From contig CBDCCK010000002.1 in assembly GCA_965214835.1 (NCBI GenBank), forward strand, positions 1,888,001 to 1,952,000: a stretch of DNA of 64,000 bases, given 5' to 3'. Below the pieces are notes generated by a model that was given only the letters and a program-made list of their open reading frames with translations, was not told the origin of the DNA and did not search any database. Positions 10,243 to 58,217 of the stretch are shown one piece after another (within the stretch, counting starts at the first letter, position 1; the number at the start of each line of letters is the position of its first letter). Source of the DNA: Nitrosopumilaceae archaeon. Its GTDB lineage: Archaea > Thermoproteota > Nitrososphaeria > Nitrososphaerales > Nitrosopumilaceae. The translations under genes and the position numbers were made by a program.

Positions 10243-10362
10243 CAGTCTTCCCAGAAGTGCCACATCGAATCATCCTAGGCTCGAAACAATTCAAATGAGA
10301 ATGCCTGCAGATCCGCATGTCGTCTACTGCACCACCACAGTCGGTTACTTTTGGGAATGCTG
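10243..10362. mobile_element. MITE family D (120 bp)
   Basis: TIR CAGTCTTCCCAGAAGT / ACTTTTGGGAATGCTG; second copy at 17577..17697, partial end at ~45228. Confidence 0.85.
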
Positions 10363-16300: not shown

Positions 16301-17532
16301 TGATCTACTGGATCATATCTCGCATTCTTCAGCTTCTTCAGCTTCTTTTCGATCGGAATCTGCACCCCGTCCTCATTCACCATACAGTTGACTTGGACGT
16401 AATCCGCATATACGAGCATCCTAGACTCAAATCTGACAAGCTCCCCCACGGTAACCTCCAGATGATCCGGATACAGCCTGTCATCGTCATCTAGATACGC
16501 AATGAGCTCGCCTCCAGCTGCTGTATCTATTGCATAGTTGTTGGCATAGGACTTGCCCCTGTGTTCTTCTAGCCTGATATACCTGATCCTAGGATCCTCA
16601 AACCCGTCAATTATACCCTTGATGTCCCTTCCCCCATCATTGACTATAATCAACTCGAAATTCTCATACGTCTGCGACAATACCGACCTTATCGCAAGTG
16701 GGATTATGGATTCCCTGTCTCGTGTGGCCATTATTACAGAAACAAGCGGGCTTTTGGGCGGCTTGGACGGGACTTGGCCTCCGCCTCGTGGCACCCACTT
16801 TCGCAGGAAATAGTCCTTGTTCTTCTGATCCACAAACGGTGATCTCAAGTCCGGATCCCCGGCGTGCGTAGGATCACCGGTATCGGTGCGGTAGACAAAG
16901 ACGTCCCTAGCAACCAGGATCGTCCCCCCAGCCTCCCGTATCCGCCTGCAATAGTCGTCATCATACAGCGGCCCGAAGCTGAATCCCTCGTCCAAGGGCC
17001 CTATGTCGGCTACAATCTTTGATCTTGCCACCATACAAAAGCCCCCGACCCGGTGGTATTTGGCCGTCAGACCCTCATACTTGGCGTGAAAGTCCCTGCC
17101 GTATTCGGCAATATGCACGGGATCGGATCCCACGCCGCACGAATAGTCGCACTGCATGACACCTGCCGAGTTGCTCATGGGCCCGACCGCCCCCGCATCC
17201 GGGTTGCCCTCAAGGTGTCCCACGAGCGTGTCCAGCCAGCCCGGGGTCACGATGACGCTGCTGTCCAGCCAGACGGCATACCTAGCGCGAATCTTTTCCA
17301 GTCCCTGATTCATGGCCCTTACGAACCCGGCGTCTTTTTTGTTTCTGATCAGTACCGAGCCGTCAAACCTTTTGAGGTACTGCAAGGTTCCGTCCGTCGA
17401 GCCGTTGTCTACGAATATGTACCTGTAGGATATGGCGCCTTTGCTTGCCTCTACGCTCTCGATACACCTTTTTGTGCCATCCAGATCGTTACGGGTCACG
17501 ATGATGATGTCGCACGTAGACGGTGTGCTCAT
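10345..17532 (-). pseudogene. Giant multidomain glycosyltransferase (~2390 codons) split by two frameshifts: GT2-GT2-TPR-'RPDL' domain-coiled coil-amphipathic segment-GT2-GT4-GT2-GT4
   Basis: ORFs 14854..17553, 12416..14911 and 10345..12591 join across a 14-nt insertion (15221-15234) and a C12 tract (12484-12495); start MSTPSTCDIII matches the paralog at 58218; the stop lies inside MITE D. Confidence 0.82.
14917..15320 (-). repeat. 42-bp coding tandem repeat (AELGRQVDTLEGDK, ~9 units)
   Basis: Units at 14921, 14963, 15005, 15047, 15089, 15131, 15173, 15215 (+14 nt), 15271. Confidence 0.95.
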
Positions 17533-17576
17533 ATCAATGAAAAAAGGCTCCACGTATTAATAACATACTGCATGCC

Positions 17577-17741: not shown

Positions 17742-20239
17742 GTGCCCAACCTATTTTCAGATCTAATTCGTCAACAGACCTTATGCGTAATCGACCGGAT
17801 CGAAATATTCCGACGGTGGCCGGCCATACATGCAAGGCTGACGGCATCACATGACGTGTATGAGGGCGGCAGAGTCCGTATATAGTGCAGCTACGAGCCA
17901 TTACAGCTGGTAAAAACTACAGTATAGTGCGGCATCGTGTGGCGCCGCAATGCGCTCCGTATCGTGGTATCAGAACCCATGCATGAGCTTCTTGTTCCGC
18001 TTGTCCCACAGCAGCCTAAAGTTGGCAAGCCCGGCCGTCACCTGGAACTCCCTGTCGAACTCCTCGGCGGTCCCGTCGTACGGATCACGCATCCGCTTGT
18101 ACTGCTTTATCCGTCCTATGGCGTGCTCTACTGTCACCCTCTTGCTGCTTATCCTCCTGTTCTGCGCTTTCTGTTTCTTTGTAAGCTTGCCTTTCCTTGG
18201 CTTCTTGTCGGGCTGCACGGATGTGGCCCCGGGATACACCTCCTCGATTCCCATGTATCCCAGATCAGAGAACATCTTTACCTTCTCGTCCTCGGGGTGC
18301 TTTCTGTTGCTGCGCATCCTGGCAGTCAGGATTCCCAGATCCGGTGGGTTGTTCTTTATCATGGTGAGGTCGTGCGTGCTTCCGGGCGCCGACTTGCTTG
18401 CATACATCGCCAGTCCCTTCTTGTCGGCAATCACCTGGGTGTTGCGCGTAAAGCTCTTCTTCTTGCCAGAGTATGCCTCCTTTCTTGGCTCCTTGTCTGT
18501 GGGGCGCTGTATGTCGATGTGCGTGCCGTCTACAATCACGGTCAGATCCGGGACGATCTTCTTGACTTCCTTGATCGTGCGGGCGTTTCGTATCTTTCGC
18601 GATACGGCGTCCGGCGTGGGCAGTATCTTGGTGAATATCATGTCGCAATACCTGAGGTACCTGCATACGGTGCTCTGGTCTATGCCAAAGAATGCCGCAA
18701 GCTGCTCCTGTGTCGGGTTTCCGTACTTGCGCATCAGCGACATCAGCAGGGCGTGGCGGTAGGACAGCTTGCACCGGTTTCCGGGCAAGTTGTCCTCGTC
18801 TTCTGAGAACAGGGGGCCTTCTGTGTGCTTTTTGGCAAGCTTCGTAAACCGGTCATATATGTAGTCAAACTGGCGGAGGTTCATCGACGTGGTGGGCTGC
18901 AGGGACCCGCCACCGATTATGTCATCGAGCACCTCGAGCCTGTGCATGAGGGCGGCGTTGTCCGCGGAGCGCCTGTCGTCATCCCAGGTTGCGGGCCACA
19001 TCCGGCGCTCGGCGTCCAGCTGCTGTTCCAGCTGCCCTATCCTCTCCTGATCCCGCTCCTGCCTCCTGCCGTCCTGCCTGCTCTTCTTCTCGTACTCTCT
19101 GATCTCCTTCCTGTACTGCATCCTCTCCGTCCTGTCCCGCGCCTTCTCCTTCCTGTCCTGCCTGCTCTTCTTCTCGTGCCTCTTGATCCTCTTCTCATAC
19201 TTCTTGATCTTCTTTTTGTCCCGCGCCTTCTCCTTCCTGTCCTGTACCTTCTCCTTCTCGTACTGCTCGATTCTCTTCTTCAGCAGTCGTATCTGCTCGG
19301 TCTCGGACTTTGCCATTACTCTTATGCGAGAATGGATCCCGGATCTAAATCAATCGTCTGAAAATAGTTGTGGTTTTGATCAAATATTTTCAACGTTGTA
19401 AGGTACAGTCGCGCGTGCGCCGGCCCTGACTTGCCTCATTTGTAGCCCGTGCGCCGGGGGCATCGCCGCTAATTTCGTTTACGCATAAGGTCTAACGAAC
19501 AATCGTATTTTCATTGGCTATTACTGATGTAAAATTGCGATACAAAAATTCGGCTCTGGGGTTTTTCTGGACATTTCTAGAACCTGTATTGATGCTAGGA
19601 ATACTCTATGTTGTATTTAGCAATATTTTGCGAAGTGAGATTGAACACTACCCGATGTACTTGCTGATCGGGCTGGTATTTTGGTATATGTTTTCAAGAG
19701 CTACAACTGCTGGAATGACAAGCTTGCAAGACAAATCGTTTATAATCCAAAAAACATCTTTACGTCGTGAAATTATTGTTATTAGTTCTACGCTTACCGC
19801 TTTCATAATGATGATGTTTGAACTGTTGGCGTTTGGTGTATTTGTAATAATTTTTCAATTTGTTCCGCCATTAACAATATCGTTCTTGCCTATTTTACTA
19901 CTGGAGATACTCGTTTTATCTCTAGGCATAGCGTTCATCCTCTCTATTCTTAATGTTTATTTTAGAGATATTCGCTTTATTTGGCAAGTGATTCTTCAGG
20001 CGTCTTTCTTTCTTTCTCCCATAATCTATACACTTGACATGTTTCCTGAAACCATTCGTGGTATATTGGAAATTAACCCCTTCGTCCACATGTTAAACAT
20101 AACTCATAGTTTAGTACTGTATGGAACAACGCCCGAATTAAATTCCTTGTTTTACCTGATATCCACCACTGGAGCTCTGCTGGTGTTTGGATACTATTTA
20201 TTTAAATCAAAAGGGAAAAAAATTGCGGAGAAAATATAA
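17742..20239 (+). pseudogene. wzm: ABC-2 polysaccharide exporter permease interrupted near codon 11 by an IS
   Basis: GTG CCC AAC CTA TTT TCA GAT.. at 17742 matches MPNLFSDLIRQ of 44400..45176 and resumes at 19494; KLRYKNSALGFFWTFLEP motif. Confidence 0.88.
17776..19493 (-). mobile_element. IS5-family (ISL2/DDE_Tnp_4-like) element; transposase 17970..19316
   Basis: TIR AGACCTTATGCGTAA; TSD AAC; motifs VDGTHIDIQRP..YSGKKK, HDL, SDLGY, RVTVEHAIGRIK. Confidence 0.9.
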
Positions 20240-20985
20240 TGTCTGAAAGCATTGCTTTAAGATTAGAAAATGTTTCAAAAACATTTCGTATTCGATCAAA
20301 TAAAGACAGTACACTGTTTGAATTTTTAACCTCTTTTTGGAAAAATAATGTTGATGAAGAATTGAAAGTTTTACAAAATATCAACCTAACTATTCACAAG
20401 GGTGAGACATTAGGAATATTGGGTCTTAACGGAGCTGGAAAAAGCACACTATTAAAAATTTTAGCACAAATCTACGCTCCTGACTCTGGAACATTGCACG
20501 TTAATGGGAAATTAACCCCTTTCTTGGATCTAGGTACTGGATTTAATGGAGAGCTTTCTGCACGAGAAAATGTTTATGTTTATGGCATATTGTTAGGATT
20601 ATCAAAGAAACAAATTACTGATAAAATAGGTGACATTTTTGAGTATGCAGAACTTGAAAAATTCAAAAACACAAAATTGAAGAATTTTTCTTCTGGCATG
20701 GTGGCAAGATTGGCATTTTCGACAGCTATTACCGTTGATCCTGATGTCCTGTTGGTTGACGAAGTTCTGGCAGTCGGCGATGCACTATTTCGCCAAAAAA
20801 GCTACAAAGCATTTTTAGACTTTAAACAGAAAAACAAAACAATAATTATTGTCTCTCACTCAGTAACCCAAATTCAAGATCTGTGTGACCGAGCAATACT
20901 ACTTTTCAACGGAAAAATTATTTCTGACGGTGTTCCTGATGTTGTTGCTAAAGAATATGCAAAACTAATTGACACTAAATCGTAA
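20239..20985 (+). CDS. wzt: Polysaccharide ABC exporter ATPase without a C-terminal binding domain
   Basis: GLNGAGKST, FSSGMVARLAFS, LLVDEVLAVGD; 248 aa. Confidence 0.93.
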   Translation: MSESIALRLENVSKTFRIRSNKDSTLFEFLTSFWKNNVDEELKVLQNINLTIHKGETLGILGLNGAGKSTLLKILAQIYAPDSGTLHVNGKLTPFLDLGTGFNGELSARENVYVYGILLGLSKKQITDKIGDIFEYAELEKFKNTKLKNFSSGMVARLAFSTAITVDPDVLLVDEVLAVGDALFRQKSYKAFLDFKQKNKTIIIVSHSVTQIQDLCDRAILLFNGKIISDGVPDVVAKEYAKLIDTKS

Positions 20986-25497: not shown

Positions 25498-26541
25498 TTG
25501 ATACCGTATGTGGAAATAATCCGAAGTCGTGCCCCGCTGCGTATTAGCTTTGCAGGAGGCGGAACAGACGTGTCCCCGTATCCTGAATTAAAGGGAGGCG
25601 CAGTAATCAGTACCACCATAGACAGATACGCCTACGTATCATTACAGGCAAATCAAGAAAACCGAGTGCAGGTCAAATCCCACGACTATAATCTTTTGGA
25701 AACATTTGAGAACATCTCTGATATGACATACGACGGAAGATTAGACTTGGCCAAAGCCGCAATAAAGATATTGAATCTGGAAAAAACATATTTTGACGCA
25801 CTGATACATGTCGATTCCCCGCCAGGATCCGGCCTAGGATCATCTTCTGCTGTGGCCGTAAGCCTGATCGGTTCGCTATCTTATCTCCTGAGGAAAGATC
25901 TCTCTACTTACGAGATAGCAGAAAAGGCCTATGACGTGGAAAGAGTCGAATTGGGAATCAAGGGCGGCAAACAGGATCAATACGCATCATCTTTTGGCGG
26001 GTTCAACCTTCTGGAGTTTAAAAAATCATCCGTTGACGTTACCCCGCTTCGAATAAGACACGAAATTTTAAACGAATTACTGGCCTCTATTGTGATCTGT
26101 GACACGCAGGTTACTCGACTGTCTGCTAACATCCTTGAAAGACAGTCAAAGAGCTACTCAAAGGGAAGCAATACCATTGATTCTAACCTAGATTTCATAA
26201 AAAAATCTGCCTATGACATGAAAGCCTCTCTAATCAAAGGCGACATGACAAGTATGGGCGAACTGCTACACGAGGGCTGGATGTATAAAAAGAGACTTGA
26301 CAGCGAGATTAGCAATTCGTCAATTGATAAAATTTATGACACTGCCTTGGAAAATGGCGCATCCGGAGGAAAACTGCTGGGGGCCGGCGGAGGCGGGCAT
26401 TTTCTGTTCATTTGTGATCCGGACAAACGCAATGAAGTCTCGCGTGTTGTAGAAAAGCTAGGCTGCAAACAAATCAAGATAAATTTTGATACTGAGGGAC
26501 TGCAGGTGTGGAAAAAAAACAACGATCACATCACATATTGA
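25498..26541 (+). CDS. hddA: D-glycero-alpha-D-manno-heptose-7-phosphate kinase (GHMP family)
   Basis: RAPLRISFAGGGTDV, PPGSGLGSSS, GGKQDQYA, GKLLGAGGGG; next to gmhA. Confidence 0.9.
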   Translation: MIPYVEIIRSRAPLRISFAGGGTDVSPYPELKGGAVISTTIDRYAYVSLQANQENRVQVKSHDYNLLETFENISDMTYDGRLDLAKAAIKILNLEKTYFDALIHVDSPPGSGLGSSSAVAVSLIGSLSYLLRKDLSTYEIAEKAYDVERVELGIKGGKQDQYASSFGGFNLLEFKKSSVDVTPLRIRHEILNELLASIVICDTQVTRLSANILERQSKSYSKGSNTIDSNLDFIKKSAYDMKASLIKGDMTSMGELLHEGWMYKKRLDSEISNSSIDKIYDTALENGASGGKLLGAGGGGHFLFICDPDKRNEVSRVVEKLGCKQIKINFDTEGLQVWKKNNDHITY

Positions 26542-26588
26542 CGACAACATCAAACAGTTTAATACCGTACGCTGATGATGCCTAAAGC

Positions 26589-27197
26589 ATGAAATACACT
26601 CATTTTATAGAACGCGAACTACAAAGCAGCATAGACATAAAAAAATCACTTTTGGCAGACATCCAGACAATTCAAAAAATCGGAAAAATTATGATCAAAT
26701 CCATCAACTCAAACCACGGCATATTCTTTCTTGGAAATGGCGGCAGTGCTGCCGATGCGCAACACATGGCAGCCGAATTGGTGGGGCTGTTTGGCCACAA
26801 CGTAAAGCGAGCTGCACTTCCTGCAGTTGCCCTGACTACTAACTCGTCCATTCTTACTGCAGTATCCAACGACATTTCCTTTGATATGGTATTCTCAAGA
26901 CAGGTTGAAGCTTTTGTTAAAAAGGGCGATGTGGTGGTGGGGATAAGTACCTCTGGACGCTCAAAAAACATTATTGAGGCAATAAGGCTTGCCAAGAAAA
27001 AGGGCGCCATCACAATTGCTCTTACCGGAAAAAACAAGAGTCCCCTCTCAAAAATTGCCGATGTTTCCATGCATGCTCCCTCAAACAATACCCAAAGAAT
27101 TCAGGAATGCCACATTACACTGGGCCACATCTTCTGTGGAATGATTGAGAATTCCCTCAAGCCTGATTTCATTCTGACTGCAGGAAAGAAGGCTTAA
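26589..27197 (+). CDS. gmhA: Sedoheptulose-7-phosphate isomerase
   Basis: GNGGSAADAQHMAAEL, ISTSGRS, RIQECHI. Confidence 0.95.
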   Translation: MKYTHFIERELQSSIDIKKSLLADIQTIQKIGKIMIKSINSNHGIFFLGNGGSAADAQHMAAELVGLFGHNVKRAALPAVALTTNSSILTAVSNDISFDMVFSRQVEAFVKKGDVVVGISTSGRSKNIIEAIRLAKKKGAITIALTGKNKSPLSKIADVSMHAPSNNTQRIQECHITLGHIFCGMIENSLKPDFILTAGKKA

Positions 27198-27221
27198 TAT
27201 TGAATCGTACTTTGCCCAATA

Positions 27222-28184
27222 ATGTTGAGGGTATTTGTTACTGGAATTACCGGCTTTGTGGGAAGCCACCTGGCAGAATACATCCTGGACAAGCACCCCG
27301 AATACGAGGTTCACGGTGGTTCCAGATGGAGAAGTGATCTGCAAAACGTCAGACACCTAGATGGAAAGATCTCCATGCATGACTTTGAGCTGCGTGACGG
27401 AAAATCCGTAGAGAACGTAATTAAAAACGTTCGGCCGGAAAAAATATTCCACCTTGCGGCCCAATCCTATGTGATGTCAAGCTACGAGCATCCGCGCGAT
27501 ACCATCGAAACAAACGTTATTGGAACGCTGAACCTTTTTGAGGCCATTAGAAAGTCAGACATCGATCCGGTCGTGCATGTCTGCAGTTCTTCAGAGGTGT
27601 ACGGCAGGGTTAACCCTGATGAGATACCCATCAAGGAAACCAACGAATTAAGGCCTGCCAGTCCGTATGCCCTGAGCAAAGTGGGCGAAGATCGGCTTGG
27701 ATTTCAGTATTTTAATTCCTACGGGATCAAAAACATCATGACTAGGGCATTTACCCACACCGGCCCGCGCAGAGGCAGCGTATTTGCAGAATCCAGTTTT
27801 GCCAAGCAAATAGCCGAAGCTGAAAACGGAAAACGCGAGCCTGTTGTCAGTACAGGCAATCTGGACTCTGTTCGAACTTTTCTTGATGTAAGGGACATTG
27901 TTCACGCATACTGGCTGCTGACTGAAAAATGCGTTCCCGGCGAGGCATACAATGTAGGCGGAAAAACCACAATGAAGGTCGGAGAGATGCTTGACCTGAT
28001 GATTGGCATGAGCGACAAAGAAATCACGACAAGGCAGGATCCAAGGCGCATGAGGCCCTCAGACGTCACATTACAAATTCCTGATACCTCCAAGTTTGCA
28101 GAAAAAACCGGCTGGAAACCCACAATTCCGGTTGAAAAGACGTTCAGGGATCTTTTGGATTACTGGCGTGATCTAACAAAATAA
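27222..28184 (+). CDS. GDP-sugar 4,6-dehydratase, DmhA-like (GDP-manno-heptose)
   Basis: GITGFVGSHL, HLAAQS, VHVCSSSEVYG, YALSK, THTGPRR, GNLDSVRTF; lies within the heptose genes. Confidence 0.8.
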   Translation: MLRVFVTGITGFVGSHLAEYILDKHPEYEVHGGSRWRSDLQNVRHLDGKISMHDFELRDGKSVENVIKNVRPEKIFHLAAQSYVMSSYEHPRDTIETNVIGTLNLFEAIRKSDIDPVVHVCSSSEVYGRVNPDEIPIKETNELRPASPYALSKVGEDRLGFQYFNSYGIKNIMTRAFTHTGPRRGSVFAESSFAKQIAEAENGKREPVVSTGNLDSVRTFLDVRDIVHAYWLLTEKCVPGEAYNVGGKTTMKVGEMLDLMIGMSDKEITTRQDPRRMRPSDVTLQIPDTSKFAEKTGWKPTIPVEKTFRDLLDYWRDLTK

Positions 28185-28416
28185 AAGGCCTAAAAATTAT
28201 GGGACATGACGACAGAGAGTTGATTTGAACTTTACAGACAGACAATTCACCATTTGCAGGCATCATTTTGATCGATTTGATGCAAATCTGCTTATGTGTG
28301 ATCCGAGTCTGCTGATTTCGAGCCAACCCTCCGGCAAACGTGATTTTCATATAAAACGTGTCACGTGACCGGGGTTGTAATGACAAATTTTTATTGAATA
28401 CAAACTACAAGACGAC

Positions 28417-28902
28417 ATGAAGCGCGGATTGTTCCTGGATCGTGACGGCGTACTAAATTTCAAGGCTGAATCCTATGTGACTACAGCAGATGAACTGGTG
28501 CTGCTTCCAGACGTCGGAAAACATCTGAGGAAGTTTCAGGAATGCGGTTTTCAGCTGTTTGTGGTTACTAACCAGTCTGCAATAAACCGTGGACTGCTAA
28601 GTCATGAAACCCTGAATAAAATCCACCAGAAGCTGTTACATCAATTATCCGCAGATGGCGTTACCGTAAAAAAAATCTATTACTGCCCGCACAAACCAGA
28701 AGAGAGGTGTGCATGCCGCAAACCAAAAAACGCATTGTTTGAAAAAGCCCTAAGGGACAACCGTCTTGATCCCTCACAATCCTGGATGATAGGAGATTCA
28801 AACTCCGATGTTGAGGCTGCAATCGCTTCCGGCATAAACCCATTTAAAATAAGAACCAATTCCTCCTTGCTGGCCTGCATTGAGAAGATCTTAGACGGCT
28901 GA
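28417..28902 (+). CDS. gmhB: D,D-heptose-1,7-bisphosphate phosphatase (HAD)
   Basis: FLDRDGVLN, VTNQS, YYCPH, CACRKPK, MIGD. Confidence 0.93.
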   Translation: MKRGLFLDRDGVLNFKAESYVTTADELVLLPDVGKHLRKFQECGFQLFVVTNQSAINRGLLSHETLNKIHQKLLHQLSADGVTVKKIYYCPHKPEERCACRKPKNALFEKALRDNRLDPSQSWMIGDSNSDVEAAIASGINPFKIRTNSSLLACIEKILDG

Positions 28903-31212: not shown

Positions 31213-31261
31213 CAGGGGCGAGATAAGGATGGCAGAAATGAGCGGCTGGTTGATGTAGATG

Positions 31262-34022: not shown

Positions 34023-34940
34023 TCATAGCGTCAAGTTTCGGAGTTGCTGGATCCATTTGCGCTGTATCTTTTTGTAGGTCGGGCCGGCAATTGAGAAGAT
34101 TATCTTCTGCTCCTTTAGTGGCATCTTCCCATCGTAGAGTCTGATGGCGTCCGGATCTATTGAGCGATACGGATCTGTGTCTCCTATGGCGTACCCGTTC
34201 TCGTCAACGTATTTGTGCTCCATCAGGTGATGGTTCAGCATCTTGGTGTCAAACGGGATTTTCAGGAACCTGCATATGTGTCTGATGTTTCTTTCCGGCG
34301 AGGTACACAGATCTTCGTACAGGATCAGACGGAGTTTGTAGCCCATCTCGTCATACCGGAAGAAGGATTCGGTCTTTATCTTCCAGTACAACGCCACCTT
34401 TGCTGCAAACGAGAACTCGCCGGCATTTTTTATTATGGACAGGTCTCCAGCGTACTTTTCATTGAAGCCAGGAATTGTCTCGGGGTAGAGGGAATCCACA
34501 TATCCTTCCCATGAGTTGGCCCAAGATGAGTATCGTGGGTTTGTCTTTAGCCTCTTCAGGGAAAGGCACACGTCCCTGGGATCCCTGACTAGGAACAAGA
34601 CAAGATGGTTGTTGTACCTGAACGGAAATGGAAACTTGTGGTAGCTTATGTCCCTTGCCACCCCGTCTGTATTGTCAAACTGCTCTGTCAGACAGGGGCA
34701 CTTGAAGGCCAGAACTCTTTTTCCCAGACTTTTCTGCTCGCGAAGCTCCCCTTCGAGCACCGTCTCATCTGCAAAGTAATCATAGGAGGTCGGCTCGTCA
34801 TGGCAGCTGATCCCGCTGTGGCACTCGAGAATAAGATGCATCAGCGTTGTTCCAGAGCGCTGGCATCCCACAATGAGGCAGATGTCAGAGTGCTCGTCGA
34901 CCAGCCGGTCAAACAAACGCGATCTGTTGACATCGGCCAC
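34023..34940 (-). CDS. PAPS-dependent sulfotransferase
   Basis: IVGCQRSGTT (5'-PSB), LVRDPRDV..S (3'-PB), YEDL..P; paralog of the domain in 37044..39824. Confidence 0.88.
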   Translation of the reverse strand: MADVNRSRLFDRLVDEHSDICLIVGCQRSGTTLMHLILECHSGISCHDEPTSYDYFADETVLEGELREQKSLGKRVLAFKCPCLTEQFDNTDGVARDISYHKFPFPFRYNNHLVLFLVRDPRDVCLSLKRLKTNPRYSSWANSWEGYVDSLYPETIPGFNEKYAGDLSIIKNAGEFSFAAKVALYWKIKTESFFRYDEMGYKLRLILYEDLCTSPERNIRHICRFLKIPFDTKMLNHHLMEHKYVDENGYAIGDTDPYRSIDPDAIRLYDGKMPLKEQKIIFSIAGPTYKKIQRKWIQQLRNLTL

Positions 34941-36580: not shown

Positions 36581-36639
36581 GTGTCAGCTGCATGCTGCAT
36601 ACGCATTGTATGCTGCATCTGCACGCCGTGGCGGAGCAG

Positions 36640-36776
36640 GGAGTTGATTCGAAATTAGCAGATTCTGATTATTTGTAAACGGATTTGCACAAAGCAGCTC
36701 AAAACACCAACAAAACACAAATTATTTGTGAAATTACTTGAAAGATTCGTACGGTTTCTAATTTTGGATCACCTCT
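36640..36776. mobile_element. MITE family A copy (inverted)
   Basis: Reverse complement of 1278..1414. Confidence 0.88.
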
Positions 36777-37043
36777 CTGATGACATGCCTTAGTACACAC
36801 ATCAAAAATTGGAACATAATTTTGGCATATTGTGCCTATTTTGGCACAAAAATGTTTGATTTTCAACTGTGCGTACTAGTGATCTTCTTGTCCGACATCT
36901 TTCTTGTCATGTCTCTGCCTGATCGGTACAGTCTGAAATGCTCGGCGACCGTACGCCTTATCTTTAGGCGGATCTAATTTTTGTACAAAACACGGCCCCG
37001 GTTTGCGTTATATGTTTATAGAGAACTGCGCATACGGCAAATA

Positions 37044-39824
37044 TTGAAGATTATAGCATACCTGTGCGTGTACAACGAGGAGGACATACTGGAGGAGAAC
37101 GTTCTTTACCACACCGCGCAGCAGGGGGTGGACATAGTCGTAATAGACAACGGATCAACTGACGCAACTGCCGATATAATCAAAAGGCTGGCAGGAGAGA
37201 ACAGGATCCTAGATCATGTCAGGTACACAACAGAAAGATTTTCACTACAGCAGCTGACTAGGGCCGGGTTTGAGCTGGCCAGAAAGCACAATCCGGACTG
37301 GATAATACACCTGGATGCCAGCACGTTTCTTGAGAGCGGTTCCGGATCGGATGTGCCGCTAAGCGAGCAGATACGGAAGGCCGACGAGGCAGGATACAAC
37401 GTCATCAGCCTGGCATCATACGACTTTTACCCGACTGAGAGGGACGATCCGGACGAGTCCAGCGTATTCAAGCGGATGAAGTTCTATGCCAACACAATAT
37501 ACACAAACAGACTACAGGAGAAGATATTCAAGAACCTTGACGGACTGCTGACCCACAATGGACACAAGATCATATTTCCCAAATCCGCCGAAAAGAAGAT
37601 ATCTGACAAAAAGGCAGTCATGCGGCATTACATATTCCGGTCTGCGCCCCACGGCGTAAGAAAGATCCTTGAGAGAAAGAACCGGTGGGATGCCGCCGAG
37701 CGTGCAGACAACCACCACACCCACTATGACGGCTTTCTTGGATTTGAGGAGGAAATCCCGGTTCCATCTAGGCTCCTTGCGTTCAAAGACGAAGAGGGCG
37801 GATGGGACAGCTCGATAACATACAAAGAACCGCCCCCCCTTCCAACCGAAAAGTATGATATCAACAGGTCACATAGGTTTGACAGACTGCCATTCCGACA
37901 TTCTGACTGCTGTTTCATTGTGGGATGTCCGGGTTCGGGAACCTCACTGCTAGGACATATTCTTGAGGGTAATGGCAGTGTCATCTGCTACGGCGAGCCG
38001 GCATGCTACGACTATCTGTCAGATGCGGCCCTGCCTGAGGAGGCCAACAAACAAAAGACTGAAAATGGCGTCCTGGCCTTCGAGTCTGCCGGTATTACAG
38101 AATACCTTGACAGTCCAGACCGGGCTACAGAATATTCCAGAGGCCGCAGGTTTCCTCCCGCGTTTACATATGACGGCCAGCCGGTTTTATTCCTGGTCAG
38201 GGATCCAAGGGACGTATATCTGTACTTGACGGGGCTCAAATCGGATCCCTTACAGCGTGACGCGGCAGAAGCATGGGAGAAATACATAGATGACCTGGCA
38301 GCCGAGGCGAAGGCAAGGGGCGCCGATCCCGGAGGCGGACATCTCGGAAACCTATCTGCATTGAAAAACGCCGGCAAGCTCTCGCTTGCCGCAAAGGCCG
38401 CACTGTATTGGAAGATAAAGACAGAGTCATTCTTCAGATATGACGAGCTGGGCTACAACCTGCATCTTGTCCTGTACGAGGATCTGTGCGTGTCGCCCGA
38501 GAAAAACCTCGAGGATATTTGCAACTTTCTAAAAATCCCGTTTGATTCGCAGATGCTAGAACATGACTCCATCAAGCGTGATGTTGGCAAGGGCGGGGTT
38601 GCAGATGACGCCCATGTGCGGCTCATAATGGATCCGGGAGACGCCATAAAATACAGGGGAAATGTTCCCATAGAGGAACAAAGGACAATCCTCTCGATTG
38701 CCGGCCCGACATACAAGAAGATACAGCACAAATGGATCCAGCAGCTTGGAAAGCCGGACAAGCAGGCCGATGCGTTGGAGGCAGCCAAGTCCTATCTTGC
38801 TGCCAGAGACGAGAGAATACAGGAACTGCAGGAGGATCTTGACGAGAAGAACGTCTGGGCGCTGCGCCTTGACGAGGAGGCGGAGATCAAAGATAAGAAG
38901 ATACGGGAACTTCAAAAGGAGTTGGACGAGAAGAGCGTCTGGGCGCTGCGCCTTGACGAGGAGGCGGAGATCAAAGATAAGAAGATACGGGAACTTCAAA
39001 AGGAGTTGGACGAGAAGAGCGTCTGGGCGCTGCGCCTTGACGAGGAGGCGGAGATCAAAGATAAGAAGATACGGGAACTTCAAAAGGAGTTGGACGAGAA
39101 GAGCGTCTGGGCGCTGCGCCTTGACGAGGAGGCGGAGATCAAAGATAAGAAGATACGGGAACTTCAAAAGGAGTTGGACGAGAAGAGCGTCTGGGCGCTG
39201 CGCCTTGACGAGGAGGCGGAGATCAAAGATAAGAAGATACGGGAACTTCAAAAGGAGTTGGACGAGAAGAGCGTCTGGGCGCTGCGCCTTGACGAGGAGG
39301 CGGAGATCAAAGATAAGAAGATACGGGAACTTCAAAAGGAGTTGGACGAGAAGAGCGTCTGGGCGCTGCGCCTTGACGAGGAGGCGGAGATCAGGGACAG
39401 GGAGGCGGAGATCAAAGATAAGAAGCTGGGTGACCTTCAGAGGGAGTTAGACTCTACCAAAAAGACCATAGAGAACAAAGAGTCAGAGATGGCAGATCTG
39501 CTACAGAAGATGCATGTGCAGAACGACGAATTTGAGGAGATCAGGCAGTCAGTCCTGTTCAAAACTGCATCAGGTCTTGCCAGAAAACTGGACAAGTTGT
39601 TCCCGCAGAATAGCAAAAGGGGCGAGATGTTCAGATTGTCCAAGGCATTGTTTGACATAGTCCAAAACGACGGATATGGGGCCCTTCTGAGAGCCTTTAG
39701 GGAGAAATGGCGCAGCAGATCCGAATCCCCTCCCCCCGAAGACACCAGCATCAGTTATGAAAAGACCAGGCAGCATCCTGATGACGCGTCTGCTGCCGAC
39801 TCTGCAGAGCAGGCAGAGCAGTAG
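37044..39824 (+). CDS. GT2-like + sulfotransferase-like + coiled-coil repeat + amphipathic segment fusion
   Basis: CVYNEEDIL..IDNGSTD; IVGCPGSGTS, LVRDPRDV; 7x28-aa repeat; probable TTG start at 37044 (ORF open from 36981). Confidence 0.87.
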   Translation: MKIIAYLCVYNEEDILEENVLYHTAQQGVDIVVIDNGSTDATADIIKRLAGENRILDHVRYTTERFSLQQLTRAGFELARKHNPDWIIHLDASTFLESGSGSDVPLSEQIRKADEAGYNVISLASYDFYPTERDDPDESSVFKRMKFYANTIYTNRLQEKIFKNLDGLLTHNGHKIIFPKSAEKKISDKKAVMRHYIFRSAPHGVRKILERKNRWDAAERADNHHTHYDGFLGFEEEIPVPSRLLAFKDEEGGWDSSITYKEPPPLPTEKYDINRSHRFDRLPFRHSDCCFIVGCPGSGTSLLGHILEGNGSVICYGEPACYDYLSDAALPEEANKQKTENGVLAFESAGITEYLDSPDRATEYSRGRRFPPAFTYDGQPVLFLVRDPRDVYLYLTGLKSDPLQRDAAEAWEKYIDDLAAEAKARGADPGGGHLGNLSALKNAGKLSLAAKAALYWKIKTESFFRYDELGYNLHLVLYEDLCVSPEKNLEDICNFLKIPFDSQMLEHDSIKRDVGKGGVADDAHVRLIMDPGDAIKYRGNVPIEEQRTILSIAGPTYKKIQHKWIQQLGKPDKQADALEAAKSYLAARDERIQELQEDLDEKNVWALRLDEEAEIKDKKIRELQKELDEKSVWALRLDEEAEIKDKKIRELQKELDEKSVWALRLDEEAEIKDKKIRELQKELDEKSVWALRLDEEAEIKDKKIRELQKELDEKSVWALRLDEEAEIKDKKIRELQKELDEKSVWALRLDEEAEIKDKKIRELQKELDEKSVWALRLDEEAEIRDREAEIKDKKLGDLQRELDSTKKTIENKESEMADLLQKMHVQNDEFEEIRQSVLFKTASGLARKLDKLFPQNSKRGEMFRLSKALFDIVQNDGYGALLRAFREKWRSRSESPPPEDTSISYEKTRQHPDDASAADSAEQAEQ
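38815..39392 (+). repeat. 84-bp coding tandem repeat x7 (ELDEKSVWALRLDEEAEIKDKKIRELQK)
   Basis: GACGAGAAGA(A/G)CGTCTGGG at 38841, 38925, 39009, 39093, 39177, 39261, 39345. Confidence 0.96.
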
Positions 39825-39957
39825 CAGGCGTCGATCAGGGGGCAGCATCCTGATGACGCGTCTGCTGCCGACTCTGCAGAGCAGGCAGAGCAGTAGCAGG
39901 CGTCGATCAGGGGGCAGCATCCTGATGACGCGTCTGCTGCCGACTCTGCAGAGCAGC
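39769..39957 (+). repeat. 72-bp tandem repeat (~2.6 units), each full unit carrying an in-frame TAG
   Basis: CAGCATCCTGATGACGCGTCTGCTGCCGACTCTGCAGAGCAG occurs three times. Confidence 0.93.
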
Positions 39958-40257
39958 AACAGCGCACCGCCGCCCTGGCCGAAAAAGTCAGGCGGTATTC
40001 GGAGACTGCCAGACTTGACGACCCCGGGCTGAGCTCAAGAATAATCTGCAACGAGCGCCTCGTCGAGCCTGATGAAGATCTTAGAAAACACATGCAGATC
40101 GGATCGGCGGAAATCCTCACACTTCCAAGAAATCCGAAGGTCAGCATAATCATTCTTACCCTCAACCAAACCGATTATCTCAGAAAGAACCTAGAGTCAA
40201 TAGAGTCAAAGACGACATACAAAAACTATGAGATCATTATTGTCACAAACAACAGAG
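39958..40257 (+). pseudogene. In-frame GT2 module remnant cut by MITE E
   Basis: LAEKVRRYSET..PKVSIIIL..YEIIIVTNN near-identical to both paralogs. Confidence 0.85.
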
Positions 40258-40366
40258 GTACCAGCTCGGGCTCTGGAAGTTCAGGCATGAGTTTTGCTAC
40301 CTCGGAGAGGCCTCCCGTAGATTCGTACCTGAAATCAGGAGCAGCTTCCAGAGCCCGACCTGTTAC
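40258..40366. mobile_element. MITE family E copy
   Basis: Reverse-complement homolog of 970..1080. Confidence 0.8.
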
Positions 40367-40603
40367 GAATATTGTGAGAAAAGGATTCATGACAGAATAG
40401 GGCAAAAAAATTGGAAGATGGGTTTTACTGCAAATATTTGTCACGAGGATCCAAGAGACGTTCCCATGCTTCAGGTTGCGGATTACATAGCAAGTGCAAC
40501 CCAGGGATTCATTGTTCACGGCGATGCGACGTTTTACAACGCGTACAGTAACAAATTGAGCTATCGTGAAAAATTGGACAGCAACGATAAGATAAGATGG
40601 TGA
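40367..40603 (+). pseudogene. C-terminal fragment of a DUF3800-like gene
   Basis: PMLQVADYIA motif; 5' part lost at MITE E. Confidence 0.5.
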
Positions 40604-43653: not shown

Positions 43654-44403
43654 TTACGATTTTGCATCAATTAGTTTTGCATATTCCTGAGCAACAACAC
43701 TAGGAACATCATCAGAAATAACTTTTCCGTTGAAAAGTAGTATTGCTCGGTCACACAGATCTTGAATTTGGGTTACTGAATGAGAGACAATAATTATTGT
43801 TTTGTTTTTCTGTTTAAAGTCTAAAAATGCTTTATAGCTTTTTTGACGAAATAGTGCATCACCGACTGCTAAAACCTCGTCAACCAGCAGGACATCAGGA
43901 TCAACGGTGATAGCTGTCGAAAATGCTAATCTTGCCACCATGCCGGAAGAAAAATTCTTCAATTTTGTATTTTTGAATTTTTCAAGCTCTGCATATTCAA
44001 AAATATCATCTATTTTATCGGTAATTTGTTTCTTTGACAATCCTAACAATATACCATAAACATAAACATTTTCTTGTGCAGAAAGCTCTCCATTAAATCC
44101 AGTGCCTAGATCCAAGAAAGGAATTAATTTTCCATTAACGTGTAATGTTCCGGAATCAGGAACATAGATTTGTGCTAAAATTTTTAATAGTGTGCTTTTT
44201 CCAGCTCCGTTAAGACCCAATATTCCTAATGTCTCACCTTTGTGAATAGTCAAGTTGATATTTTGCAAAACTTTCAATTCTTCATCAACATTATTTTTCC
44301 AAAAAGAAGTTAGAAATTCAAACAGTGTGCTGTCTTTATTTGATCGAATACGAAATGTTTTTGAAATATTTTCTAATCTCAAAGCAATGTTTTCAGACAT
44401 CAT
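43654..44403 (-). CDS. wzt: Polysaccharide ABC exporter ATPase
   Basis: Near-identical to 20239..20985. Confidence 0.93.
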   Translation of the reverse strand: MMSENIALRLENISKTFRIRSNKDSTLFEFLTSFWKNNVDEELKVLQNINLTIHKGETLGILGLNGAGKSTLLKILAQIYVPDSGTLHVNGKLIPFLDLGTGFNGELSAQENVYVYGILLGLSKKQITDKIDDIFEYAELEKFKNTKLKNFSSGMVARLAFSTAITVDPDVLLVDEVLAVGDALFRQKSYKAFLDFKQKNKTIIIVSHSVTQIQDLCDRAILLFNGKVISDDVPSVVAQEYAKLIDAKS

Positions 44404-45176
44404 ATTTTCTCTGCAATTTTCTTCTCTTTGAGTTTAAATAAATAGTATCCAAATATTAGCAAAGCTCCGGTGGTTGATATCAGATAAAATAATGAGTTTA
44501 ATTCAGGCATTGTTCCGTACAGTACTAAACTATGAGTTATATTTAGCATGTGAACGAAAGGGTTAATTTCTAATATCCCACGAATGGTTTCAGGAAACAT
44601 TTCAAGAGTGTAAATTATAGGAGAAAGAAAGAAAGATGCTTGAAGAGTTACTTGCCAAATAAATCGAATATCTCTAAAATAAACATTAAGAATGGAGAGA
44701 ACGAACGCTATCCCTAAAGATAAAATGAATATCTCTAGCAGTAAAATAGGCAAAAAAGATATTGTTAGTGGTGGGATAAATTGAAAAATTATTACAAATA
44801 CGCCAAACGCCAATAGTTCAAACATCATCATTATGAAAGCGGTAAGTGTAGAACTAATAACAATAATTTCACGACGCAAAGGTGTTTTTTGGATTATAAA
44901 CGATTTATCTTGCAAGCTTGTCATTCCGGCAGTTGTAGCTCTTGAAAACATATACCAAAATACCAGTCCGATCAATAAATACATCGGGTAGTGTTCAATT
45001 TCACTTCGCAGAATATTACTAAATACAACATAAAGTATTCCTAACATCAATACAGGTTCTAGAAATGTCCAGAAAAACCCCAAAGCAGAATTTTTATATC
45101 TTAATTTTACATCGGTAATAGCCAACGAAAATACGATTGTTCGTTGACGAATTAGATCTGAAAATAGATTGGGCAT
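44400..45176 (-). CDS. wzm: Polysaccharide ABC exporter permease (intact copy)
   Basis: ABC-2 permease motifs; overlaps wzt by 4 nt. Confidence 0.93.
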   Translation of the reverse strand: MPNLFSDLIRQRTIVFSLAITDVKLRYKNSALGFFWTFLEPVLMLGILYVVFSNILRSEIEHYPMYLLIGLVFWYMFSRATTAGMTSLQDKSFIIQKTPLRREIIVISSTLTAFIMMMFELLAFGVFVIIFQFIPPLTISFLPILLLEIFILSLGIAFVLSILNVYFRDIRFIWQVTLQASFFLSPIIYTLEMFPETIRGILEINPFVHMLNITHSLVLYGTMPELNSLFYLISTTGALLIFGYYLFKLKEKKIAEKI

Positions 45177-55428: not shown

Positions 55429-56205
55429 ATGGTGGCTCTGCCGTTTGCGGATTTGTGGCAAAATAAGGCACTGGTTGTGAGCTTTTCCTGGTATTTGATC
55501 AAGATACGCTACAAGGCAAACCACCTTGGTCTGATCTGGGCCGGACTGGAACCGATGCTGTTCTTTGTTTTCCTGCACCTAGTGTTTACAAGCATCAAAT
55601 TCGGGTCTGGGGACGACTTTTCAATATACCTGCTGACGGGAATCGTCCTCTATCATGCATTTGCAAAGGGTACTAACGCGGGACTCTCCAGCCTGAGGGA
55701 TAACGCGAACCTGGTCACATCGCTCAACATAAGAAGGGAGTTCTTTCCCGTCTCCTCCACCTCGGCCTCTGCCATCTTGCTGATGGTGGAAGTCGCGGTG
55801 TTTTTCATGATAATGCCGTTTATCGGGTTTACGCCGACGGCCGACATGATATTCTTGCCGCTGATATTGGGCCTGCTTCTCGTCCTGATCTTGGGGATGT
55901 CGTACATTCTGTCAATAGTCTATACGTATGTTACAGACATCAGGCCCCTGTGGGGGGTCATCGTGCAGGCGCTGTTTTTCATCACCCCTGTCTTTTGGCG
56001 TCTGGAGGATGCGCACGAGATCGCAGGAAGCATACAGATGGTGAATCCGATCGGACAACTGGTGGAGCTGGCGCACGGGGTGGTCATATATGACGTCCCG
56101 CCCGTAAGCGAGTGGGCCTATACCACTGCCATGATTTTCGGGATATTTGCATTCGGATACGTGCTGTTTCACAGGCTTGAGAAAAACATTGCGGAGAGAA
56201 TCTAG
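55429..56205 (+). CDS. wzm: Polysaccharide ABC exporter permease (divergent third copy)
   Basis: IKIRYKANHLGLIWAGLEP, FFITPVFW, NPIGQLVE. Confidence 0.9.
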   Translation: MVALPFADLWQNKALVVSFSWYLIKIRYKANHLGLIWAGLEPMLFFVFLHLVFTSIKFGSGDDFSIYLLTGIVLYHAFAKGTNAGLSSLRDNANLVTSLNIRREFFPVSSTSASAILLMVEVAVFFMIMPFIGFTPTADMIFLPLILGLLLVLILGMSYILSIVYTYVTDIRPLWGVIVQALFFITPVFWRLEDAHEIAGSIQMVNPIGQLVELAHGVVIYDVPPVSEWAYTTAMIFGIFAFGYVLFHRLEKNIAERI

Positions 56206-56934
56206 ATGGAAAAGCCGTTCATTTCAATCCGCAACGTGACAAAAACATTTAACGTCTCGCAAAGCAGTGAAAAAAGATCCCTTTTCTCCATGCTGAAAGA
56301 ACGAAAAAAGATGGTCGCGCTAAAAAACCTGTCCCTCGACATAGAAGGGGGGAGCGTTGTCGGAATAATAGGCTCCAACGGAAGCGGCAAGACCACCCTT
56401 CTGAGGATAATCGCTGGAATTCTCGAGCCCGATTCGGGAACGGTGAGTATAGGCGGAAATATCGCGCCGTTGTTTCAGATCGGAGCCGGGTTTCACAGGG
56501 ATCTAAACGCCCGGGAGAACATAATGATCTCGGCGATGCTGTCCGGGCTGCCAAGGCACGCCATCAAAAAGAAAATCCCCGAGATTTTAAAATTTGCAGA
56601 ACTTGAGGAGTTCAGGGAGATGAAGATAAAGCACTATTCGGCAGGAATGAAGGCCAGACTGGCGTTTTCGACTGCAATACTAGTCGATCCTGACATACTT
56701 TTGGTCGATGAGATCCTCTCCGTCGGCGACATTTCGTTCAGGAAAAAAAGCCTTGCCGAATTTTTAAAGCTAAGGAACGAAAGAAAGGTAATACTTCTGA
56801 CCACGCATAACATGAGTGCTGTAAGAGACATCTGCGACTGTGTGATAGTCATGGACGGGGGAAGAATGATATTCCAGGGAGACACGTCTGAGGGAATTGA
56901 AAAGTTTGTGGAGATCTCAAGATCGCAAAAATAG
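56206..56934 (+). CDS. wzt: Polysaccharide ABC exporter ATPase without a C-terminal binding domain
   Basis: GSNGSGKTT, YSAGMKARLAFS, LLVDEILSVGD. Confidence 0.92.
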   Translation: MEKPFISIRNVTKTFNVSQSSEKRSLFSMLKERKKMVALKNLSLDIEGGSVVGIIGSNGSGKTTLLRIIAGILEPDSGTVSIGGNIAPLFQIGAGFHRDLNARENIMISAMLSGLPRHAIKKKIPEILKFAELEEFREMKIKHYSAGMKARLAFSTAILVDPDILLVDEILSVGDISFRKKSLAEFLKLRNERKVILLTTHNMSAVRDICDCVIVMDGGRMIFQGDTSEGIEKFVEISRSQK

Positions 56935-56935
56935 C

Positions 56936-57766
56936 TTAGACGTAGCCAAATTTTCGAAGGATCGGCTCCGATATCCCCATTATGGTGTCATGCTCCTCGC
57001 CTGAAAAGGCCTCCTTCCACCCGCCCACCTTTGCGCTCCTGTAAAACTTGCCGTCTCCCCTTAGATCTTCATCAATATTCTCAAAGGCGTACTTGTCTAC
57101 CTTTGAGGCCAGATCCTCGTCTGTGATCGAGACGTCAAGGAAGCTGTAAACTCGCTTTGTTTGTGCAAGCGTGTCTGTGCGCAGATCCTCGTACTTTACC
57201 AGCAGCCTGTTTTCGGGCGAATGGTTCTCAAAGGCAAAGGAGACATGTTTTAGCGAGTTTGCCCAATTTTTTGCAAATTTCTTAATGCGCTCATTTCTGC
57301 CCTTGTCTGTTGCCCAGATGACGCCGTTTTCATTCCAAGAGCCCTTGTTTGTAGCGTTGATCTGCGAATCTACCACGTCCCTTCCATCCCTAATCAAAAA
57401 TATCATCTTCGAATCCGGCAAGGCGCCCACCACTGCAGGTGCCCCAAAACCGGCATTGGGATCCTTGATTATGATGTTTTTCGCAGTTGTGCTGAATTGG
57501 GCATGGGCCCTGTTGAGAATTAACTTTCTTAGATGGTATTTCCACACGTCCTGGTATTTTTTTGAAAGAAAATACGGATCTCCTCTATTCGTTTGCCAGT
57601 CTGAAACACTCGCAAAGTGATTGCCGATGTACGGTTCGTCCCAAATGAGATTTTCCGGATGGTTCAACAACTGGGTGCCCAGCCACGTGGATCCGCTTCT
57701 TCCAGATCCCGTGAGCCAGACCATTTTTTTTTCAAGATCACGCTCTTCGATTGATGTCAGCTCCAT
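56936..57766 (-). CDS. PAPS-dependent sulfotransferase
   Basis: GSGRSGSTWL, LIRDGRDVVDS, VKYEDL, FYRSAKVGGWK. Confidence 0.9.
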   Translation of the reverse strand: MELTSIEERDLEKKMVWLTGSGRSGSTWLGTQLLNHPENLIWDEPYIGNHFASVSDWQTNRGDPYFLSKKYQDVWKYHLRKLILNRAHAQFSTTAKNIIIKDPNAGFGAPAVVGALPDSKMIFLIRDGRDVVDSQINATNKGSWNENGVIWATDKGRNERIKKFAKNWANSLKHVSFAFENHSPENRLLVKYEDLRTDTLAQTKRVYSFLDVSITDEDLASKVDKYAFENIDEDLRGDGKFYRSAKVGGWKEAFSGEEHDTIMGISEPILRKFGYV

Positions 57767-57998: not shown

Positions 57999-58217
57999 AA
58001 ATTAGATACCGGGTAAATGCCAGGATTTTTCCGTACGTCTGCCAGGTAGTTTTACAGACAGACAGTCTGCCATTTGCAGGCATTATCTTGATCGATCTGA
58101 TGCAAGTTCGCTTACACATGATCAGAGTCCGCCGACTTCTAGCCGGCCCTCTGGGAAGCAAACTATTGCCATCGCACATGCAGTATGTTATTAATACGTG
58201 AGTCTTTTTTCATTGGT

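Follow-up and report, generated by a model that had tools for sequence, protein, structure and literature searches.

Glycan synthases with repeat-built coiled coils in ammonia-oxidising archaea: a possible repeat-tuned ruler for surface-glycan length

Enzymes that carry a rod built from DNA repeats probably make surface sugar chains in ammonia-oxidising archaea, and how many repeat units the rod contains could reset the length of these chains. We analysed a window of 64,000 nucleotides (the whole stretch of DNA to which the coordinates below refer), which holds three paralogs, here called A, B and C; a recent duplicate of A (C2:1970873) and another paralog (contig C1) lie beyond it. The host is archaeal, as had been predicted, since amoA is present and the genome is of the Nitrosopumilaceae type, an ammonia oxidiser. 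In proteins of the family, a head of catalytic type is combined with a long heptad helix and a basic amphipathic three-helix segment, to which full-length members add C-terminal GT2-GT4 modules, and the genes lie beside wzm/wzt. The helix grows and shrinks by gain and loss of 84-bp and 42-bp units, and both heads and units transfer between paralogs. The WbdD/WbbB-like architecture proposed in the original prediction holds, next to export genes, at the level of the family; taken as a whole, its observation was confirmed in part and its interpretation supported in part. We favour, with moderate confidence, the view that these proteins are archaeal members of ABC-transporter-dependent glycan assembly with the WbdD/WbbB layout, in which the coil is a repeat-tuned ruler for chain length.

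An array scan, together with one degenerate 84-type unit that follows the 42-bp array of C, gave the same unit counts for A, B and C as had been predicted (7, 5 and 1 of the 84-bp unit; 0, 7 and 9 of the 42-bp unit). The layout attributed to all three paralogs was found complete in B, was missing the GT2-GT4 part in A, and was broken twice in C here while intact elsewhere. Paralog B (58185..64000, + strand; 2091 aa, extending about 460 bp beyond the window end) is the sole intact full synthase within the window and is predicted to be the working synthase of this genome. Its order is GT2-GT2-TPR, coil, amphipathic segment, second coil and GT2-GT4-GT4-like modules. The 84-bp array of B (60178..60583, + strand) has 4.8 copies at 100% matches. 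Its 42-bp array (60969..61266, + strand; 7.1 copies, 99%) had been counted as part of the coil, but it lies 3' of the amphipathic segment and so outside the head-to-anchor coil. The latter array is about 80% identical to that of C, and allele P0003 has three units of it. This variable second coil, located between anchor and polymerase modules, is not required by a simple ruler geometry and so counts against the ruler.

Paralog C lies on the - strand in three parts. The 5' part (14854..17553) encodes GT2-GT2-TPR, a small helical domain and the 42-bp array (14914..15323; 9 full units and partial units, scored as 7.4 copies plus two more units), within which the frame is broken at about 15222-15235. 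The middle part (12416..14911) encodes the amphipathic segment together with a GT2-GT4 module of low GC (32-45%) and ends beyond a poly-C tract, and a second GT2-GT4 module (10345..12459) has 89% DNA identity to B. Two lesions account for the breaks, an out-of-frame 14-bp patch in the array and one extra C in the poly-C tract. Judged by its reading frames, C is inactivated in this genome and intact in other assemblies; P0002 and P0122 have 11 intact units versus 9 here. Since one of these lesions sits within the array, array changes do not invariably preserve frame. The expectation that length would change without loss of frame or heptad register was thus upheld for whole-heptad variation and contradicted by the 14-bp patch.

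Paralog A (37044..39824, + strand; 926 aa, TTG start) reads GT2, sulfotransferase-fold domain, coiled coil and amphipathic helices and then stops, a WbdD-like format. Its GT2 head (Pfam Glyco_tranf_2_4; 37044..37790, end approximate) lacks the second Asp of the DxD motif, as do 7/8 full-length homologs. The sulfotransferase-fold domain (37890..38747) has 50% identity with a stand-alone gene at 34023-34940, and its motif Arg and Ser, both retained in 8/9 homologs, are replaced by Gly and Tyr. The 84-bp array (38841..39393; 6.6 copies, 99% matches) encodes a 28-aa four-heptad unit and contains seven Trp-bearing units. Previously put at about 29 nm, the coil is longer when taken in its entirety (38760-39545): it has about 260 aa, and a rise of 0.148 nm per residue makes this about 39 nm. 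The basic amphipathic three-helix segment that follows (39528..39719) is conserved across the family and is the presumed membrane anchor and polymerase-recruiting region. Beyond it, a TAG at 39822-39824 terminates A, leaving a product without GT2-GT4; the stop is common to five alleles, so that the same C-terminus is found in 5/5. A had been described as a full synthase with polymerase modules, a description that fails for those modules and for the sulfotransferase, which is without its conserved Arg and Ser.

The stop lies inside a 72-bp repeat (39769..39956, + strand) composed of a 44-bp duplication and a 28-bp insert, with in-frame TAGs at 39822 and 39894. There are 2.6 copies of this repeat in A and 1.6 in both its duplicate and G416. 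An off-target CRISPR scar is a conceivable origin; the unit total of 72 bp would fit, the split is 44 + 28, and a search of the genome found no source for the insert. In contig-type sequencing runs, long pieces stop or restart near the repeat, which is compatible with its presence and is not proof of it. Downstream lies an untranslated 94-aa GT2 remnant (39975..40256, + strand) with 89% protein identity to B, and a MITE-like short repeated element of about 110 bp (40258..40366, strand unassigned; some 80-90 genomic matches) adjoins the break of the remnant. The first 568 residues of A have 39-49% identity, over about 95% of the searched region, to P0135-P0141, stand-alone GT2-sulfotransferase proteins of 552-731 aa from an unnamed family, which match the head of A and are without a coil. 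From these alignments, A is a GT2-sulfotransferase module fused onto a coil and anchor resembling those of B. It is a derived head-coil-anchor protein whose polymerase tail is gone, and probably its own sulfotransferase activity too. Consequently, A may be a scaffold that acts with B and a stand-alone sulfotransferase, or it may be decaying; that it still works as a ruler is doubtful.

Unit number varies by whole heptads within the genome, between assemblies and across homologs, in agreement with the variable counts that had been anticipated for related genomes. Alleles of A have 7 units here and 6 in the duplicate, and those from other assemblies have 6, 6 and 8, with variant units at differing positions. 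The duplicate differs from A over 12.2 kb by three repeat-unit losses (84, 21 and 72 bp) versus four substitutions. Among 23 homologs, the length difference was a multiple of 14 residues in 10/10 close pairs and coils ranged from 45 to 306 aa, a range that excludes the values of a simple coil-length heuristic, which gave zeros for several proteins. P0023 and P0025 share 99% identity outside the coil, and one has enlarged a 14-mer while the other has enlarged a 28-mer. In another pair, the methyltransferase-headed P0006 and P0133, a single 14-residue unit is the sole difference. When we examined 50 homologs with the amphipathic segment, a sequence repeat was present upstream of it in 26 and downstream in 0, and the repeat periods were multiples of 7 in 25/26 of the repeat-bearing proteins. 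In low-GC relatives, arrays of at least 94% identity were present in 4/8 genomes. Locus retrieval by alignment A1 gave mainly distant bacterial GT2-GT4 genes and served as a control only, and searches of phages and plasmids returned distant glycosyltransferases only.

Structural predictions bear out the expected coil. The heptad register is kept in the units of A and B and, together with long helices in two single-chain models, supports an extended coil between the head and the membrane region. In the AlphaFold model of A, helices span residues 573-685 and 717-852, both of modest confidence, and three short helices come after them. In the model of a family member, P0004, a Rossmann head is joined by a single 87-residue helix to three short helices, a GT-A and a GT-B domain. 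The conserved three-helix segment reaches a hydrophobic moment of 0.41-0.45 and has a net positive charge; the moments of the coil are similar. A trimer prediction for residues 690-895 of A received a score close to zero, too low to speak for or against a trimer, and a search of the ESM Atlas with the coil and anchor gave matches that were all under 0.9. B, intact C (P0002) and family members carry a fused GT2-GT4 at the coil's base, which is predicted to be the polymerase. As had been proposed, the heads are exchangeable among homologs, which carry methyltransferase, sulfotransferase-like or GT2 heads; B and C each have a GT2-GT2-TPR head. At least five homologs bear a sulfotransferase-like head whose motif is intact (motif-based; Pfam at 1e-5 made no call).

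The genes nearby supply three wzm/wzt pairs, at 19514..20985 (+; Wzt 248 aa, without a C-terminal extension), 43654..45176 (-; Wzt 249 aa) and 55429..56934 (+; Wzt 242 aa, upstream of B), and wzm or wzm/wzt is also close to the gene in relatives G323, G050, G227, G317, G108 and G120. The Wzt carbohydrate-binding module (PF14524) was absent from this genome (G000) and from 5/5 relatives examined; in G317 the Wzt is 488 aa long, with an extension that has no Pfam match. Two stand-alone sulfotransferases are encoded on the - strand, at 34023..34940, with both motif residues intact, and at 56936..57766. Pfam assigned a GHMP kinase, a SIS isomerase, a GDP-sugar dehydratase and a HAD phosphatase at 25498..28902 (+), a set that we take to be a probable nucleotide-heptose donor pathway. 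A genome from a different genus (16S 95.9%) holds much of this island at 99.5-99.9% identity, which implies recent transfer. No tRNA among those listed lies near the island, the flanking ORFs include IS transposases and no integrase, and a scan for promoters and terminators gave signals near chance level.

These features resemble three described systems. WbbB of K. pneumoniae O12 and ORF6 of K. pneumoniae O7 are described as combining terminator, coiled coil and polymerase in a single polypeptide (PMC11231755); shared with them are the head at the coil's distal end, two C-terminal GT modules and an ABC transporter in the locus. The same source mentions ORF6 orthologs that stop after the coil and notes that the archaeon Methanoculleus marisnigri has homologs too. 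In contrast to the WbbB and ORF6 it describes, the archaeal coil is encoded by near-perfect DNA units differing from allele to allele, a GT2-GT4 pair is the predicted polymerase, the heads include sulfotransferase-like and GT2-GT2-TPR types, and Wzt is without a detectable binding module. For WbdD (E. coli O9a; K. pneumoniae O3 and O5), engineered changes in coil length are reported to move modal chain length (PMC3482155, PMC5082667). A shares with WbdD the format of heads, long coil and C-terminal amphipathic region without a polymerase. However, WbdD is described there as a trimer with methyltransferase-kinase heads and a coil of about 20 nm, whereas A has GT2 and a degenerate sulfotransferase on its longer coil. 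No match to WbdD or WbbB was found among solved structures by sequence or among the Foldseek matches listed. A repeat-tuned glycan ruler is already published for H. pylori FutA/FutB (PMC2583950), an 'enzymatic ruler' in which the modified chains change in size with repeat number and repeat number varies through slippage and paralog exchange, with poly-C switching (PMC2583950, PMC4205683). The archaeal family shares with these enzymes natural heptad-repeat variation beside amphipathic helices. As described, however, FutA/FutB decorate chains, change in one-heptad steps and have no polymerase, whereas the archaeal proteins change in two- and four-heptad steps, have a terminator-polymerase layout, and their effect is predicted. 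The paralogs lack a fucosyltransferase domain, Pfam giving GT2, GT4-type, sulfotransferase and TPR only, and our literature search found no repeat-encoded terminator-polymerase rulers for this archaeal family.

We infer that unit number sets glycan length. The GT2-GT4 pair would polymerise a lipid-linked glycan at the membrane while an oligomeric coil keeps the head at a distance from the membrane-bound polymerase. The head would cap or modify the chain only when it is long enough to reach, and Wzm/Wzt would export the finished glycan. An extra 84-bp unit would make the coil about 4 nm longer and an extra 42-bp unit about 2 nm, so that slippage or unequal crossover would move modal chain length stepwise.

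A first alternative, which we regard as unlikely, is tolerated drift: the coil is a mere spacer of nearly irrelevant length, heptad-multiple repeats accumulate since other changes are purged and an IS-rich genome slips, and A and C are decaying. The genome is indeed repeat-prone, a point that also weighs against the ruler, since of its 337 merged arrays 84 are near-perfect, and the period is a multiple of 21 in 33 of these 84. An IS66 transposase likewise differs in its number of 42-bp heptad units, with 1-7 exact copies at 13 places, and multiples of 7 would be selected in any coiled coil. The truncation and degenerate motifs of A and the broken frame of C fit drift as well and speak against the ruler. 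However, arrays occur in 0/6 other long coils of the genome versus 4/4 detected coil segments of the synthase family, and across the roughly 95 kb examined in low-GC relatives they are confined to synthase coils. Moreover, P0023 and P0025 lengthened in parallel through different units, and the engineered length changes reported for WbdD alter chain length (PMC5082667).

Less probable still is size-selective decoration, in which the coil would hold a head that adds methyl, sulfate or sugar at a fixed distance along the chain while export sets chain length, with FutA/FutB as precedent (PMC2583950). Transporters without a binding module would fit this reading, since for those of that kind PMC11231755 describes export of uncapped chains with a stoichiometry-dependent length, and no Wzt_C was found here. 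That same lack argues against the ruler, as PMC11231755 reports such a module for all the terminated O-polysaccharides it discusses. The GT2-GT2-TPR heads of B and C, not a recognised terminator, point the same way. Against decoration, the polymerase-type GT2-GT4 pair is joined to the coil at its base, which is the terminator format, and methyltransferases, the classic caps, are the commonest head type among the 23 close homologs (13/23). Finally, copy numbers that are mere assembly artefacts are very improbable: assembly may have collapsed the counts where perfect arrays lie on short contigs, short-read contigs break at arrays (as did three contig-type runs, no piece of which spanned one), and the one raw-read run had no reads covering the stretch, but arrays below 600 bp lie within contigs of 3.2, 2.8 and 1.9 Mb, variant units are differently placed in different alleles, and the units of homologs are diverged and imperfect.

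If the repeat-tuned ruler is correct, the family joins the adjustability of WbdD-type proteins, seen with deletions and insertions engineered into them, to the natural repeat tuning of the H. pylori fucosyltransferases, and sulfate is indicated as a chain cap. Natural alleles 14 to 84 residues apart, some identical outside the coil, are a ready series for measuring sugars per heptad, and could test ruler function without a cap-reading transporter. The ruler would also supply modular parts for polysaccharides of chosen length. More tentatively, the family might be a contingency system, mobile and modular, that adjusts surface-glycan length in these archaea. One gene would combine a coarse dial of 84 bp with a fine dial of 42 bp, and recombination would exchange the heads, sulfotransferase caps among them. 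Transporters that have no module to read the cap would export any new combination, and the island would pass from genus to genus and be tuned anew by each host. That a near-identical island occurs in two genera suggests sideways spread of surface-glycan type among these archaea, and the ruler, if true, would provide a route to long surface glycans in a group whose glycobiology is described as barely studied (PMC12153357).

The original prediction described three glycan synthases in which a repeat-built coiled coil accompanies GT2-GT4 modules, and proposed that they form a tunable ruler. An array scan and a unit count confirmed its arrays and copy numbers, and the 84-bp (28-aa) and 42-bp (14-aa) units of paralogs A (37044..39824, +) and B (58185..64000, +, running past the window end) keep the heptad register. 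The gene models fared less well. A, the flagged gene, does not carry GT2-GT4, since a TAG stop at 39822, inside a 72-bp duplication, gives a product of 926 aa that lacks these modules; beyond the stop, GT2 survives as a 94-aa remnant that breaks off next to a short repeated element. The truncating 72-bp unit (39769-39956) consists of a 44-bp duplication and a 28-bp insert, which is similar to the duplicated part in reverse-complement orientation, folds into a hairpin and has no source that we could find in the genome. A is a fusion in which a GT2-sulfotransferase protein, stand-alone elsewhere (8 homologs), is joined with a coil that shares 70% DNA identity with that of B. In its sulfotransferase, Gly and Tyr replace an Arg and a Ser with a role in binding the sulfate donor, both kept in 8 of 9 homologs. 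The predicted structure has a mean pLDDT of 63.8 and a low-confidence break at 686-716. A is the weakest example of its family. B (2091 aa) is the sole intact synthase within the window; its 42-bp array lies not in the coil between head and anchor (the amphipathic three-helix segment) but between the anchor and the C-terminal glycosyltransferases. Paralog C (10345..17553, -) carries two disruptive lesions here, an out-of-frame 14-bp patch within the 42-bp array and a poly-C tract that is one C too long, and is intact in two other assemblies (2411 aa, 11 units). The tract separates the two GT2-GT4 modules of C (12484-12495), with 12 C here, out of frame, against 11, in frame, in the related genome G416; it could act in phase switching, as similar tracts do in H. 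pylori fut genes, or the difference could be an error in the consensus. The first of these modules (12560-14860) has 32-45% GC within a 52% GC genome, which suggests that it derives from a low-GC relative. Two further paralogs, a duplicate of A and a copy on contig C1 whose C-terminal part is a differing GT2-GT2, lie outside the original three.

Counting units in paralogs and related genomes revealed that copy number varies. The second copy of A lies 46 kb away, within a very recent 13-kb segmental duplication (28300-41340 versus C2:1961856-1974979) whose 12.2-kb core differs by four substitutions, two 139-bp insertions and three unit losses (84, 21 and 72 bp). An older, 87% identical copy of heptose-pathway genes adjoins it. 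The five members of the protein cluster of A hold 7, 6, 6, 6 and 8 units, not counting an additional damaged one in the last; Asn/Ser variant units occur in differing order among them, and all five end on an identical residue. For the wider family, B residues 790-1340 were used as query and the best 120 of 669 matches considered. An anchor profile matched 64 of 146 collected proteins, leaving 50 homologs once 14 island alleles or cluster mates were dropped. A sequence repeat was present within 300 residues upstream of the anchor in 26 of the 50, with a period that is a multiple of 7 in 25, and downstream in none (two lack downstream sequence). Coil length, measured from the first Trp unit, ranged from 45 to 306 residues among 23 close homologs. 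C-terminal identity reached 75% or more in ten of the 253 pairs; these are not independent, and all ten differ in length by multiples of 14. The proteins P0006 and P0133 are identical save for one 14-mer, and P0023 and P0025, 99% identical outside the coil, carry a 14-mer expanded about 12-fold and nine 28-mers, respectively. Modules are shuffled on this architecture: the head is a methyltransferase (three Pfam types occur), a sulfotransferase-like domain whose motif is intact, or GT2. One locus (L034:15529-17298) encodes a 590-aa Wzt with a long TPR-like N-terminal region beside a family-like synthase with a kinase-like head, domains named by eye. A Trp of the 28-aa unit (alignment A1, P0004 residue 286) is near-invariant across 24 homologs, replaced by Arg in B, and lies away from the coil core in the register of A; such Trp residues might line up as a periodic track on which sugars stack.

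The genome (3.22 Mb, two contigs, 52.6% GC, 99.95% complete) encodes an archaeal amoA, and close homologs bear names from Nitrosopumilus, Nitrososphaera and Nitrosotalea, from which we infer a Nitrosopumilaceae-type ammonia oxidiser as host. The window (C2:1888001-1952000) is a glycan island rich in IS elements, with three wzm/wzt pairs, two stand-alone sulfotransferases, two methyltransferases, GT-C/LamG genes and probably a nucleotide-heptose pathway. A PMT-like GT-C membrane protein fused to LamG (31262-33769), duplicated along with the island, is a candidate for attachment or modification of the exported glycan. Two large LVIVD-repeat proteins carry a 57-aa unit about seven times at the C-terminus (171-bp arrays, 8988-10215 and 1-637; one has 7.2 copies here versus 8.7 in G416). 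This unit, which has no Pfam match, has a homolog in the small helical domain directly before the coil in C (15370-15612; 40-57% identity, E 7e-10), and segments like it can be made out in the C1 paralog and other glycan synthases. G416, labelled another genus of the same family, shows 95.9% 16S and 85.4% amoA identity to this genome, and many control stretches that look single-copy reach just 65-78% when aligned. The island nevertheless recurs there (C1:1150951-1197643 and 1271678-1282946): four repeat-poor blocks are 99.5-99.9% identical, and four that contain repeats or IS ends 97.7-99.0%. This copy of the island includes A (5.6 units) and intact C (11.4 units); B was not found in G416, nor A or B in four congeners, one just 76% complete. 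Recent horizontal transfer is the simplest reading of these alignments, with a chimeric assembly as a formal alternative. Many short IS-like stretches are also common to both genomes (93-99%).

In a class-wide search, 9 of 400 other genomes proved to have both coil and anchor. Four of the eight that lack the shared island carry coil arrays at 94% identity or more: 42 bp x6.3 (G323), 42 bp at least x4 at a contig break (G212), 84 bp x3.0 and x1.9 (G050) and 42 bp x2.7 at a contig end (G047). In G227 the contig breaks within an 84-bp unit, G108 has an array at 71%, and none was seen in G317 and G394. An allele of B has three 42-bp units against seven here, on a 21-kb contig in which the array may have collapsed. 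That the copy numbers as a whole are assembly artefacts is very improbable.

If these proteins act as WbdD and WbbB do, a lipid-linked glycan would be polymerised by the C-terminal GT2-GT4 and capped by the head, which the coil would keep at a fixed distance. The architecture, its variation and the shuffling of modules can be seen in the sequences; that the proteins polymerise, cap and control length is inferred from the analogy. With 0.148 nm per residue, the coil would grow by about 4 nm for each 84-bp unit and about 2 nm for each 42-bp unit. We give this full ruler reading somewhat better than an even chance. That unit number simply drifts and is tolerated is unlikely, yet two controls speak against the ruler: of 84 near-perfect arrays among 337 genome-wide, 33 have a period that is a multiple of 21, and an IS66 transposase (L003:323-1960 and 12 other places) repeats a perfect 42-bp two-heptad unit close to its N-terminus, the number of exact units ranging from 1 to 7 across the 13 places. 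On the other side, four of ten long coils in the genome (identified heuristically) have arrays, all four of this family, and arrays scoring at least 90 in seven relatives' loci (~95 kb, 29-41% GC) are confined to these coils. In a control set of 159 loci, mostly bacterial, 37 comparable coils had seven arrays, of which only two were at 90% or more, both short. Heads that decorate the glycan and do not terminate it are a rather improbable alternative. The likeness to WbdD/WbbB held for the layout and not for sequence homology, and neither this genome nor any of the five relatives searched yielded a Wzt binding module, unlike the terminated O-polysaccharide systems discussed in PMC11231755, all of which use one. 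That paper also treats the coil as a marker of this assembly strategy and records orthologs ending after the coil and homologs in Methanoculleus.

PMC5082667 and PMC3482155 describe WbdD as a trimer with a ~20-nm coil whose engineering shifts chain length, and PMC13168486 and PMC12153357 give general background. In H. pylori FutA/FutB, natural heptad-repeat variation tracks the size of the modified chains (PMC2583950, PMC4205683), so a repeat-tuned glycan ruler is not new as a concept. In the literature that could be searched, we found nothing on repeat-encoded WbdD/WbbB-type coils, sulfotransferase chain caps or this archaeal family. The synthases described here are a real, length-variable family of ruler type in archaea, laid out as are WbdD and WbbB.
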